Assembly (NCBI RefSeq): GCF_988242995.1 | Contig: NZ_OZ547043.1 | Reading direction: 5' to 3' (one strand) | DNA: 64,000 nt | Part shown: piece after piece, positions 1,016-49,838 of the stretch | Layout of the letters: every line of letters starts with the position of its first letter | How positions within the stretch are numbered: the first letter of the stretch is position 1 | Made by a program: the position numbers and the translations under genes | The notes under the pieces: model-generated | The model's database searches: none | Seen by the model: only the letters and a program-made list of their open reading frames with translations | What the model was told of the DNA's origin: nothing

Positions 1016-1099
1016 TTAATTTCGATTATTTTTCCCGGATGGAAAATTCTTAGAAACCGATCACATACAGCTGCATTTATTAAGGTTATCATCTGTTTC

Positions 1100-1186
1100 G
1101 CTGAAAAACATAACCCATAAAATGCTAGCTGTACCAGGAACCACCTCCTTAGCCTGTGTAATCTCCCTTACACGGGCTTATTTTTT
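1100..1186 (+). ncRNA. cyaR: CyaR (RyeE) Hfq-dependent sRNA; its last 27 nt are the prophage att core
   Basis: Sequence gctgaaaaacataacccataaaatgctagctgtaccaggaaccacctccttagcctgtgtaatctcccttacacgggcttatttttt matches my recollection of cyaR; ends in hairpin plus T6. Confidence 0.8.
1160..1186. repeat. attL core, 27 bp (aatctcccttacacgggcttatttttt)
   Basis: Exact 27-bp direct repeat of 33441-33467; reverse complement equals the P2 locI core as I remember it (AAAAAATAAGCCCGTGTAAGGGAGATT). Confidence 0.85.
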
Positions 1187-1250
1187 ACGCGTAACACAAT
1201 GAAATAAAAGGATTTATTTCTGGTCACGTCCACACATTGACCACATCGAC

Positions 1251-1274
1251 AAAAAAGCCCCTCGACTGAGGGGC
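1251..1274 (-). terminator. Rho-independent terminator downstream of ogr
   Basis: Hairpin gcccctc-gact-gaggggc preceded on + strand by A6 (U-run on minus strand), 14 bp past ogr stop. Confidence 0.6.
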
Positions 1275-1287
1275 TTCCTGTTTGTAA

Positions 1288-32347: not shown

Positions 32348-33361
32348 ATGGCAATCAAAAAACTCGATGATGGTCGATATGAAGTGGACATCCGCCCTAC
32401 TGGACGTAATGGAAAACGCATCCGTAGGAAGTTTGATAAGAAAAGCGAAGCTGTCGCTTTCGAGAAATACACGTTGTACAACCACCACAATAAAGAATGG
32501 CTATCAAAACCAACAGACAAGCGACGTCTGTCGGAGCTGACACAGATCTGGTGGGATTTAAAGGGTAAACACGAAGAGCATGGGAGATCTAATCTTGGAA
32601 AAATTGAAATCTTCACAAAAATAACGAATGACCCATGCGCATTTCAAATTTCGAAATCGCTTATCAGCCAGTACTGCGCCACCCGAAGAAGTCAGGGTAT
32701 TAAACCTTCGAGTATCAATCGTGATTTAACATGTATTAGCGGCATGTTTACAGCCCTGATTGAAGCGGAGTTATTCTTTGGTGAGCACCCTATCAGAGGG
32801 ACAAAAAGGCTTAAGGAGGAAAAACCAGACACAGGCTATCTCACGCAGGAAGAAATTGCCTTACTGCTTGCTGCTCTTGACGGCGACAACAAAAAGATTG
32901 CGATTCTTTGCCTGAGTACTGGAGCACGTTGGGGAGAAGCAGCTCGTTTGAAAGCAGAAAATATTATCCATAACCGCGTCACGTTTGTTAAAACGAAAAC
33001 AAACAAACCACGCACCGTCCCGATCTCAGAGGCTGTTGCCAAAATGATCGCGGATAACAAACGAGGTTTTTTATTCCCTGATGCTGATTACCCTCGCTTC
33101 AGACGAACAATGAAAGCAATAAAACCGGATTTGCCAATGGGGCAAGCCACACATGCACTAAGGCACAGCTTTGCCACTCATTTCATGATTAATGGAGGAA
33201 GTATTATCACGCTACAACGGATACTAGGTCACACACGGATTGAGCAAACTATGGTTTACGCTCATTTTGCGCCAGAGTACCTTCAGGACGCCATTTCTCT
33301 TAATCCGCTAAGAGGTGGTACTGAGGCTGAGAGTGTCCACACAGTGTCCACAGTAGAGTAA
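32348..33361 (+). CDS. int: Tyrosine integrase
   Basis: 337 aa, P2 Int length; catalytic-region motifs (ARWGE, HALRHSFATH, VYAHF); 80 bp from attR. Confidence 0.9.
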   Translation: MAIKKLDDGRYEVDIRPTGRNGKRIRRKFDKKSEAVAFEKYTLYNHHNKEWLSKPTDKRRLSELTQIWWDLKGKHEEHGRSNLGKIEIFTKITNDPCAFQISKSLISQYCATRRSQGIKPSSINRDLTCISGMFTALIEAELFFGEHPIRGTKRLKEEKPDTGYLTQEEIALLLAALDGDNKKIAILCLSTGARWGEAARLKAENIIHNRVTFVKTKTNKPRTVPISEAVAKMIADNKRGFLFPDADYPRFRRTMKAIKPDLPMGQATHALRHSFATHFMINGGSIITLQRILGHTRIEQTMVYAHFAPEYLQDAISLNPLRGGTEAESVHTVSTVE

Positions 33362-33440
33362 CGTTTAAGGGCTTTCAGTGGTAATTTATGCCGCTCAAAC
33401 CCGCATTGTACCGTTGAAAGCCCCTAATGGTGACACCCTA

Positions 33441-33467
33441 AATCTCCCTTACACGGGCTTATTTTTT
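33441..33467. repeat. attR core, 27 bp
   Basis: Exact copy of 1160-1186. Confidence 0.85.
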
Positions 33468-33637
33468 GTGCATAAACCATAGAGACGGATTGATCCCAGG
33501 TGACCGTCTTCCATTGACCACATCGATAGAATCTCCCTTCATAGCACGATGCCTTTCACGTAACGGCATCGTGCTCGCACAGGTTCCGGCTAAGCACAAC
33601 CAGAACGCGCATGTTTGACGCTTACCAAAAAATATTC

Positions 33638-33955
33638 TCACTCTCCACATTTGAATGTCAGACGAGCGACGCCATGTAATCCTGCACCTTCTGTCTTCAG
33701 GTCAACTATCTGCATTTTTTTGCCCTGAGTAACACAGAAATGAGCTGCATCATTTTTTACTATATTTTCTGCACCAGATATTCTGCCCCTGGCTAAAGAA
33801 GCTTCGGCTTCGGTGTAGTATTGGTTATCGAGTTTACGCTGAATATTACTTTTATATGCAAGACCAAATTTACCGATACTTGTCTCATCATTATGTACAG
33901 CACACCCAGACATAAGAAAAACACTAATTAATGATATAGCAGCTATCTTTTTCAT
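33638..33955 (-). CDS. yegR: Small lipoprotein YegR
   Basis: 105 aa from ATG 33955 (GGAAGG RBS); signal peptide plus lipobox (LMSGC); E. coli yegR position before yegS. Confidence 0.6.
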   Translation of the reverse strand: MKKIAAISLISVFLMSGCAVHNDETSIGKFGLAYKSNIQRKLDNQYYTEAEASLARGRISGAENIVKNDAAHFCVTQGKKMQIVDLKTEGAGLHGVARLTFKCGE

Positions 33956-34369
33956 CTTACCTTCCCCCATTAAATACCAACGACACGCTCTGGTGTTAAA
34001 ATATAATAATGGCATGATTATTATAATTGAATAGGATTATAATAAATGTTCTGTACAACATTTCCTACATAAGTAGGAATTACAAACATGAAGCCCTGCC
34101 CAGGTATCCCCATGAGGGCTTTAATATATTTAGAATAAGATAGTGAAGATGCCACTGTTTAGTTGAATATTAGGTATATGCTCTTTTTTGAAATTTACCG
34201 GTGGCTACCGTTAACATTCACTGTCCCCATTGCAAGCTCCTGGTGGTAACCACTGAATCCTCCATACTTGAACTGATTTTTTATCCTCCGACTTTCATCC
34301 TGTTCTGACTCCACCTTTTCTTTTCTGCTCTACACTATCTACAGACCAATCATAAAGGCACATACGATC

Positions 34370-35269
34370 ATGGCAGAATTTCCCGCCAGCTTACTGATTC
34401 TTAATGGCAAAAGTACTGACAATTTACCATTGCGCGAAGCAATTATGCTGTTGCGTGAGGAAGGAATGACGATCCATGTGCGGGTCACCTGGGAGAAAGG
34501 CGATGCCGCACGATATGTAGAGGAGGCCCGGAAGTTGGGCGTCGCAACGGTGATTGCCGGTGGTGGCGATGGCACCATTAATGAAGTTTCTACGGCGTTG
34601 ATTCAGTGTGAGGGGGATGACATACCCGCGCTAGGAATTTTGCCATTAGGAACCGCCAATGATTTTGCCACCAGTGTAAGGATTCCTGAGGCACTGGATA
34701 AGGCGCTGAAACTGGCAATTGCCGGTGACGCCATTGCGATAGATATGGCGCAGGTCAACAAACAAACCTGTTTTATTAATATGGCGACAGGCGGATTTGG
34801 GACGCGTATTACCACAGAAACGCCGGAAAAATTAAAAGCCGCGCTGGGTGGCGTCTCTTACATCATTCATGGCTTAATGCGCATGGATACTCTGCAACCG
34901 GACCGTTGTGAGATCCGCGGTGAAAACTTTCACTGGCAAGGTGACGCCCTGGTCATTGGTATTGGTAACGGGCGTCAGGCCGGTGGCGGTCAGCAATTGT
35001 GCCCGAACGCGTTAATTAACGATGGCTTGCTGCAACTGCGCATTTTTACCGGCGATGAAATTCTTCCGGCTCTCGTATCAACATTAAAATCTGACGAAGA
35101 TAACCCGAATATTATCGAAGGCGCTTCGTCGTGGTTTGATATACAAGCCCCACACGAAATCACTTTTAATCTTGATGGCGAACCGTTGAGCGGACAAAAC
35201 TTTCATATTGAAATACTTCCGGCGGCGTTGCGTTGTCGATTACCACCAGATTGCCCATTGTTGCGTTAA
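34370..35269 (+). CDS. yegS: Lipid kinase YegS (DAGK catalytic domain)
   Basis: 299 aa; GGDGT motif of diacylglycerol-kinase-like fold. Confidence 0.85.
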
Positions 35270-49616: not shown

Positions 49617-49745
49617 AGTTTGCTCCTGCCATAACGTTAAGAAGCAATGACCTGGTGGTCCGTGACTTCCCTACGCTGGCATTATCCAGATCAGGTGATA
49701 CGGGTATTTCTCAGCCTTCACGCAGAAGGGCACCCCGAGTCGTTT
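49617..49745 (-). promoter_or_regulatory. TPP (thi-box) riboswitch in the thiMD leader
   Basis: Minus-strand sequence actcggggtgcccttctgcgtgaaggctgagaaatacccgtatcacctgatctggataatgccagcgtagggaa... matches the remembered E. coli thiM aptamer (CUGAGA thi-box present). Confidence 0.8.
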
Positions 49746-49838
49746 GGTTGCGATGATAAATCGCAGAGGAGGATGGTAATGTCCAGCGCACGCGTTGTAA
49801 ACGAGGAAAAACCGCAGTTTTACAATCGCGTTAATAAA

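Follow-up and report, generated by a model that had tools for sequence, protein, structure and literature searches.

In this work, we have asked what lies beyond the int-proximal junction of a P2-like prophage integrated at the cyaR terminator of E. coli, and whether the sequences found there belong to phage attachment or to the bacterial chromosome. The window, that is, the whole stretch of DNA analysed, comprises 64,000 nucleotides of contig NZ_OZ547043.1 (assembly GCF_988242995.1). The original prediction singled out, in the interval 33468-33640, a second copy of the first 10 nt of the att core followed by a perfect inverted repeat, and suggested three possible identities for them: a scar of an earlier integration or excision event, a secondary site resembling att, or an arm-type site bound by protein. 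Our results show that this interval is ordinary, near-universal E. coli chromosome, which was not made by the resident prophage. The overall explanation that we consider best, and hold with moderate confidence, is that of a host flank carrying a fossil phage arm, a 10-mer whose match to the core would be coincidental, and a hairpin that would belong to the RNA of the yegR 3' UTR.

The cyaR locus, its resident prophage and the bacterial flank

The cyaR sRNA gene occupies positions 1098..1183 on the plus strand (Rfam RF00112, 100.7 bits, full length), and its terminator is at the same time the att core, the bacterial half of the P2 attachment site. The 27-bp core, AATCTCCCTTACACGGGCTTATTTTTT, is identical to the annotated P2 attP core and occurs as an exact match on the plus strand both at 1160..1186, on the cyaR/ogr side, and at 33441..33467, at the int-proximal junction. 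Between these copies lies a P2-like prophage of ~32 kb (1187-33440), with int at 32348-33361. The original prediction labelled the int-proximal junction attR; in P2 nomenclature it is attL (B-O-P').

In the P2 record AF063097, the ogr side is the 'P arm', bearing IHF and Int sites and then the ogr terminator, and the int side is the 'P' arm', bearing Int and Cox sites. The ogr-side arm of the resident prophage (1187..1277, plus strand) is 98-99% identical to this record, and mapping of the protein_bind and terminator features of AF063097 placed in it an IHF region at ~1187-1219, an Int arm-type site at 1222-1249 and the ogr/F-operon terminator at ~1257-1274. On the opposite side, a repeat search identified two direct repeats of AGTGTCCACA at the 3' end of int (33332..33352, plus strand), and Int binding ('P' arm') is annotated at the homologous P2 position; these repeats constitute the Int arm-type sites on the int side (P') of the resident prophage. 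The published consensus for the P2 Int arm sites is tgTGGaCa (PMC3448106). The int-side arm also contains an imperfect 26-nt inverted repeat (33358-83 / 33409-34), and the stretch 33419-33467, in which AAGCCC...GGGCTT is followed by the T-run of the core, could form a terminator for the int transcript in the prophage state. Elsewhere in the window, a TPP riboswitch (RF00059, 71 bits; 49651-49747, minus strand) is unrelated to the flagged features.

The flagged interval is the spacer that separates the int-proximal core, which is the cyaR-terminator core of the preferred P2 attachment site, from the yegR stop codon; yegR (33638..33955, minus strand) is convergent and codes for the 105-aa lipoprotein YegR, as judged from the ORF and its translation and from the RefSeq annotation of identical loci. 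The segment 33469-33700 matches 5417 of 5426 complete E. coli genomes, with one copy in each. In the same set, the exact 55-mer 33505-33559 is present in 2577 genomes, and the junction of a P2-type int-side arm with the core in only 762. Empty yegQ-cyaR-yegR sites with the flank were found in BL21, WL297, EcPF5, ST131 p11A, O157:H7 and O104:H4, and K-12, which has an ogrK/D' remnant at the site, also has the flank. In the prophage-free O157:H7 strain YB14-1, the 10-mer, both arms of the inverted repeat and the loop are all identical to the window. The original prediction had itself named as evidence against it the same sequence standing unchanged in prophage-free genomes, with no relation to a P2-like arm, and since both the 10-mer and the inverted repeat are unchanged in prophage-free YB14-1 and O104:H4 and unrelated to the P2 arm, this is what we found for both features. 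They should not be annotated as att-related prophage features.

Alignment also revealed a deletion junction at 33627..33628, where other E. coli lineages are ~170 nt longer. The extra ~170 nt are a decayed lipoprotein gene, detected by tblastn with the neighbour protein of Cedecea and other Enterobacteriaceae (E = 2e-6 to 8e-6): in Cedecea and in uncultured Enterobacteriaceae a lipoprotein gene of 106-110 aa follows yegR, and in the long-form E. coli haplotypes the insert is a frameshifted remnant of the 5' two-thirds of this gene. The remnant is present in EcPF5, ST131 and RMDEC465 (L013 1640-1815, L014 and L015) and in the divergent Escherichia L007, and has been lost from the window, K-12, BL21 and O157. 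Two records with other labels, a MAG assigned to Citrobacter sp. (L006), which also shows the P2 junction, and a 385-bp contig assigned to Xanthobacter autotrophicus (L008), carry a yegR identical or 95% identical to that of E. coli and are probably E. coli contamination or mis-binning.

A putative fossil P2 arm beside the core

Local and multiple alignments identified, at 33468..33526 on the plus strand of the host chromosome, a putative fossil arm of the P2 ogr-side type, with 33487-33526 aligning to positions 1210-1249 of the resident P arm. The local alignment of fossil and resident arm scores 33, against 15.2 +/- 2.3 for shuffled sequences, and 0 of 1000 shuffles reach 33. When the fossil arms of five host haplotypes (the window, BL21, O157, RMDEC465, which is L015, and L007, a divergent Escherichia at 17% divergence) were compared with the resident and P2 arms using dinucleotide-preserving shuffles, z values of 7-15 were obtained, and no shuffle of 500-1000 reached the observed score. 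The counterpart of the annotated P2 Int arm site, GGTCACGTCCACACATTGACCACATCGA, is the segment 33499-33526, with 24 of 29 columns aligned alike. The last part of this segment, CATTGACCACATCGA (33512-33526), equals P2 at all 15 positions and appears to be an Int arm-type repeat that the fossil arm has kept intact, the only one: 33513-33522 (TTGACCACAT, in reverse tgTGGtCa) agrees with tgTGGaCa at 7 of 8 positions and is identical to the second P2 arm repeat, and the partner, or first, repeat is degenerate in the host (GTCTTCCA vs GTCCACAC in P2).

In P2 attP, the ogr-side arm (AF063097) comprises an IHF site and a pair of direct repeats of the Int arm type, with the ogr/F-operon terminator after them. 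The fossil aligns to this arm and agrees with it both in orientation and in the side of the core on which it lies. Unlike it, the fossil sits in the chromosome of prophage-free strains, has a degenerate first repeat, has lost the IHF box in the window, and lacks both terminator and ogr, an unrelated hairpin following instead. The IHF-box region beside the core is kept in L015 and L007. Among E. coli haplotypes the arm forms a deletion series, in which L015 is the most complete, 8 nt are missing from the window and WL297, and most strains have ~16 nt less again; the core-proximal 24 nt of the window (33469-33492, GTGCATAAACCATAGAGACGGATTGATC) represent a rare, less-deleted form, present in 142 of the 5426 complete genomes, most strains having ATGCATAAGCCCTATC. 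Among 18 haplotypes, CATTGACCACATCGA varies at 1 of its 15 positions and the rest of the fossil arm at 7 of 18, a low variation that could be due to selection, to conversion by resident prophages or to chance.

We propose that the 'empty' cyaR attB is the fossil junction of an older P2-like prophage, because the first ~60 nt after the core read as a decayed ogr-side P2 arm. As expected of a prophage remnant, the homology adjoins the core, its side and its orientation are both correct, and it is collinear with the P2 arm from the core onwards; its presence in prophage-free strains indicates that it is not part of the current element. P2 relatives that use other cores (Wphi-type, R18C, P2_AC1 and Klebsiella Kp4845-1) have the same arm architecture, which favours a transfer from phage to host, the host copy being the phage relic. 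New P2-like phages would thus integrate into the core beside an older fossil arm, and the resident prophage would be an example. A scar of earlier integration, as originally suggested, is therefore supported for the flank, in the form of the fossil arm at 33468-33526, and is not supported for the 10-mer and the inverted repeat on which the suggestion was based. An arm-like bacterial flank was not found described in the literature that we searched, and it may already have been noted.

A younger remnant at the same locus provides a comparison. In K-12, the cryptic P2 remnant has the order cyaR - core - P arm - ogrK - D' (yegZ) - truncated core - yegR, and, like the fossil, it is attached to the cyaR core and has kept its ogr-side arm. 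The older fossil arm is found in K-12 too, downstream of the truncated core of the remnant. The K-12 remnant is young, being ~98% identical to P2, keeping ogr and part of D, and occurring in some lineages only, whereas the fossil is an arm of ~60-85 nt with ~75-85% identity, present in essentially all E. coli and in divergent Escherichia. At the right end of the K-12 remnant (L001 2459-2490), a point internal to gene D is joined to core nt 11-27 (GAGAACTCTGCT joined to ACACGGGCTTATTTTTTT); the deletion took exactly the AATCTCCCTT part of the second core, and the intact D at 1780-1800 of the window continues differently.

Since the decayed arm is common to essentially all E. coli, it would date the use of the cyaR terminator by P2-like phages to before the diversification of the species. 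A further proposal, which we regard as speculative and improbable, is that the preferred P2 site of E. coli is a fossil junction and not a naive attB, and that arm decay tunes the integration and excision of P2-like phages at cyaR. If this were true, the decayed arm would offer Int one arm-type repeat, plus an IHF box in some lineages, and the int-proximal junction of every lysogen would be a partial attP mimic; the better conservation of CATTGACCACATCGA would reflect selection or repeated conversion by resident prophages, and the tuning could account for the preference for the site in some strains and for its being unusable in K-12, which has a fully intact arm beside an intact core. The natural arm variants (full, 8-nt deletion and ~16-nt deletion) are suited to testing the effects of extra-core sequence on Int recombination. 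They also carry a warning for prophage-boundary callers, as at the cyaR site arm-like sequence runs past the true junction. The fossil arm is in this respect a useful by-product of the analysis, the flagged 10-mer and hairpin being of little consequence.

The inverted repeat and the yegR transcript

The inverted repeat is perfect, as the original prediction had described it, with arms AGCACGATGCC (33543-33553) and GGCATCGTGCT (33565-33575) forming an 11-bp stem around an 11-nt loop. On the yegR sense strand, which is the minus strand, this hairpin (33543..33575) lies 63-95 nt past the yegR stop codon, and its folding energy is -20.8 kcal/mol (z = -4.2), against -19.3 kcal/mol (z = -5.2) on the plus strand. 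The absence of a U-run on both strands was likewise borne out: past the stem, the minus strand reads AUGAAGGGAG and the plus strand CGCACAGG, and a terminator scan of 33300-34500 returned no terminator-like sites. With a stable, GC-rich stem-loop shortly past the yegR stop codon on the sense strand, the hairpin resembles both intrinsic terminators and the 3'-UTR stem-loops of Rho-terminated transcripts (PMC6061677); unlike intrinsic terminators, it has no U-tract directly 3' of the stem, and it is therefore not one of them. Directly upstream of it on the yegR transcript there is a second, weaker stem-loop (33577..33611, minus strand; -17.8 kcal/mol, z = -2.8), which shows one-sided changes only among the haplotypes and whose segment is common to the divergent Escherichia L007.

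We propose that the hairpin would act, if at all, as minus-strand RNA in the yegR 3' UTR. Where Rho-terminated transcripts are processed, 3'-UTR stem-loops mark the resulting ends (Dar and Sorek 2018, PMC6061677). Similarly, the yegR transcript would undergo factor-dependent termination further downstream, followed by trimming of its 3' end, and the stem-loop would block 3'-5' exonucleases, setting or stabilising the 3' end of the mRNA. The hairpin would then be neither an intrinsic terminator nor a recombinase site. In K-12, a single transcription unit is given for yegR-yegZ (PMC3946193), and yegR is induced together with ogrK (PMC5811628), which fits with read-through and not with termination at a stem devoid of a U-tract. 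The Term-seq supplement tables that we searched do not include yegR, and no mapped yegR 3' end was found. We regard the hairpin, with low confidence, as an RNA 3'-end stability element or else as an element without function, and a purely neutral relic appears nearly as likely as an RNA stem-loop.

The alternative that survives best, which we treat as tentative but a real possibility, is that both the hairpin and the 10-mer are functionless on either strand and represent neutral sequence left at the join that an old deletion made between the fossil arm and the truncated gene lying downstream of yegR. The region is indeed a patchwork of deletions (the ~170-nt indel and the series of 8-16-nt indels), and L007 has homologous sequence on both sides and no hairpin, from which it follows that any function would be young, or the stem neutral. 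The two loop-proximal pairs are broken in some lineages, and covariation is lacking, with no compensatory change among the 14 distinct haplotypes of 33538-33615, whose divergence is too low for a covariation test. On the other hand, a perfect 11-bp stem of -20 kcal/mol is improbable in random sequence (0-1 of 200 shuffles), and the nine outer pairs are unchanged in all 14 of these haplotypes, and even in the lineage with 9.5% divergence, while the loop (3 of 11 positions) and the neighbouring sequence vary. Among 18 flank haplotypes, mostly from P2-carrying genomes, the outer pairs vary at 0 of 18 positions, against ~22% of sites elsewhere in the flank, a post-hoc comparison with P about 0.01. 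With the common ST131-type change, pairing is maintained as G.U on the minus strand, and the plus strand is left with C.A.

The failure to find relatives of the hairpin segment elsewhere is also consistent with neutral sequence. For the ~100 nt between 33527 and 33625, no relative was detected in phages, plasmids, Rfam or the neighbour gene of the outgroup. When 33469-33640 and the long-form flank were compared with 50,697 phage records (blastn, distant mode), the only matching records were those that include E. coli host flank, namely Phage TP, which is the K-12 remnant, and vB_EcoM-720R8; other phage matches, including phage 186 at E = 0.5, were at chance level, and a phage origin of the segment was rejected on these grounds. 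Genuine plasmids contained no relative of it, the 'plasmid' matches being mislabelled chromosomes, and a search of Rfam with 33380-33720 at a permissive threshold gave two chance-level matches only (E = 6-8, 14 bits vs thresholds of 50-60). In viral contigs, the full hairpin was found only in the yegR flanks of P2-like UViGs, with a loose pattern that mostly returned unrelated palindromes. We also rejected the possibility that the hairpin descends, by decay, from the 3' end of the lipoprotein gene found after yegR in other genera, because past residue ~67 of this gene neither nucleotide nor protein comparison detected similarity to the segment, and that of a dispersed REP/BIME-like element, because the median is one place per genome. 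We know of no sigma-54 promoter, REP element or operator that it matches.

The second core-like 10-mer

The second copy of AATCTCCCTT, at 33530..33539 on the plus strand, matches core nt 1-10, and the other copies in the window are the starts of the two att cores only. The distance of 89 bp from the core given in the original prediction is correct as a start-to-start spacing; counted from the end of the core, the gap is 62 nt. This 10-mer is polymorphic host sequence, with four alleles: AATCTCCCTT (the window, S51, ST131 and O157), AATCCTCCTT (K-12, BL21 and EcPF5), AATCCCCCTT (WL297) and AATTCCCCTT (RMDEC465). Three of its ten positions, 33533, 33534 and 33535, are variable and make up the densest variation in the flank, at odds with the host conservation expected of a secondary attB. 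Every allele is one step away from AATCCCCCTT, and the most divergent lineages in yegR-yegS are RMDEC465, with AATTCCCCTT (9.5%), and WL297, with AATCCCCCTT (4.4-6.5%). Because these two lineages carry AATTCCCCTT and AATCCCCCTT, the exact match to the core looks like a derived allele whose ancestor was one or the other. If the alleles are rooted with L015 (9.5% divergent) and L012, the ancestors favoured are CC or TC-less, the root of the allele network resting on two divergent lineages only.

When the 172-nt flank was shuffled 5000 times, 16 of the shuffles had a word of 10 nt or more in common with the 27-nt core. The local alignment to the core of AATCCCCCTT (CC), the likely ancestral allele, is no better than that of 27% of shuffles, and past the 10 nt local alignment found no match to the core or to either junction. 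The match between 10-mer and core is probably a coincidence. The C-run of the 10-mer may descend from the left stem of the ogr terminator of the fossil arm, an alignment that is weak, the sequence compared being AGAATAGCCCCCTT in Klebsiella phage Kp4845-1.

A different origin, which we consider very unlikely, would make of the second AATCTCCCTT the truncated far core of the older prophage, so that the fossil would be bounded by 33441-33467 and 33530-33539 after an internal deletion that would have removed everything from the ogr-side arm to the far junction. The 10-mer does lie 3 nt beyond the end of the fossil-arm homology, its two preceding bases (TA.AATCTCCCTT) resemble the phage-side junction CTAAATCTCCCTT, exact words of this length are rare by chance, as noted above, and K-12 shows that remnants bounded by a truncated core arise at this locus. 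Against this, after the 10 nt the sequence departs from the core, polymorphism affects the three central bases, with an exact match that looks derived, and the similarity of the CC allele is at chance level; moreover, L007 has the fossil arm and no such element, and the stretch aligns about equally well to the poly-A/GCCCC stem of P2-type ogr terminators such as that of Kp4845-1. Our preferred reading thus remains that of a chance resemblance in host sequence.

Known secondary P2 sites share most of the core, and a site of this kind would be expected to match it further, through the part in which the strands are exchanged. At this locus, a chimeric query in which the P' arm was joined directly to the 10-mer and hairpin had no match in the 5426 complete E. 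coli genomes, against 762 for the canonical junction, and a longer chimeric query was matched only as two pieces in the normal arrangement; together with its position at the most variable spot of the flank, this speaks against the 10-mer as a secondary att-like site. We find it scarcely credible that a dimeric protein, whether a host regulator or, at an extra arm-type site, P2 Int, Cox or IHF, binds the inverted repeat as DNA, or that the 10-mer is a usable secondary att, for although a perfect pair of 11-bp palindromic arms with an 11-bp spacer adjoins a fossil arm with one retained Int arm-type repeat, the arms AGCACGATGCC and GGCATCGTGCT are unlike tgTGGaCa (PMC3448106) and match no annotated P2 Int, Cox or IHF site and no P2-like arm aligned, the site is single-copy and E. 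coli-specific, the ST131-type substitution allows RNA pairing on the minus strand only, and the 762 genomes with P2-type prophages carry them at the canonical core.

On the minus strand, the AATCCTCCTT allele (L002 2527-2545, the K-12/BL21 allele of window positions 33520-33540) shows AAGGAGG with an ATG 9 nt on, opening an ORF of 10 codons, MWSMEDGYQR. A small minus-strand ORF at the 10-mer was rejected, as both its length (10 to 27 codons) and its frame differ among haplotypes.
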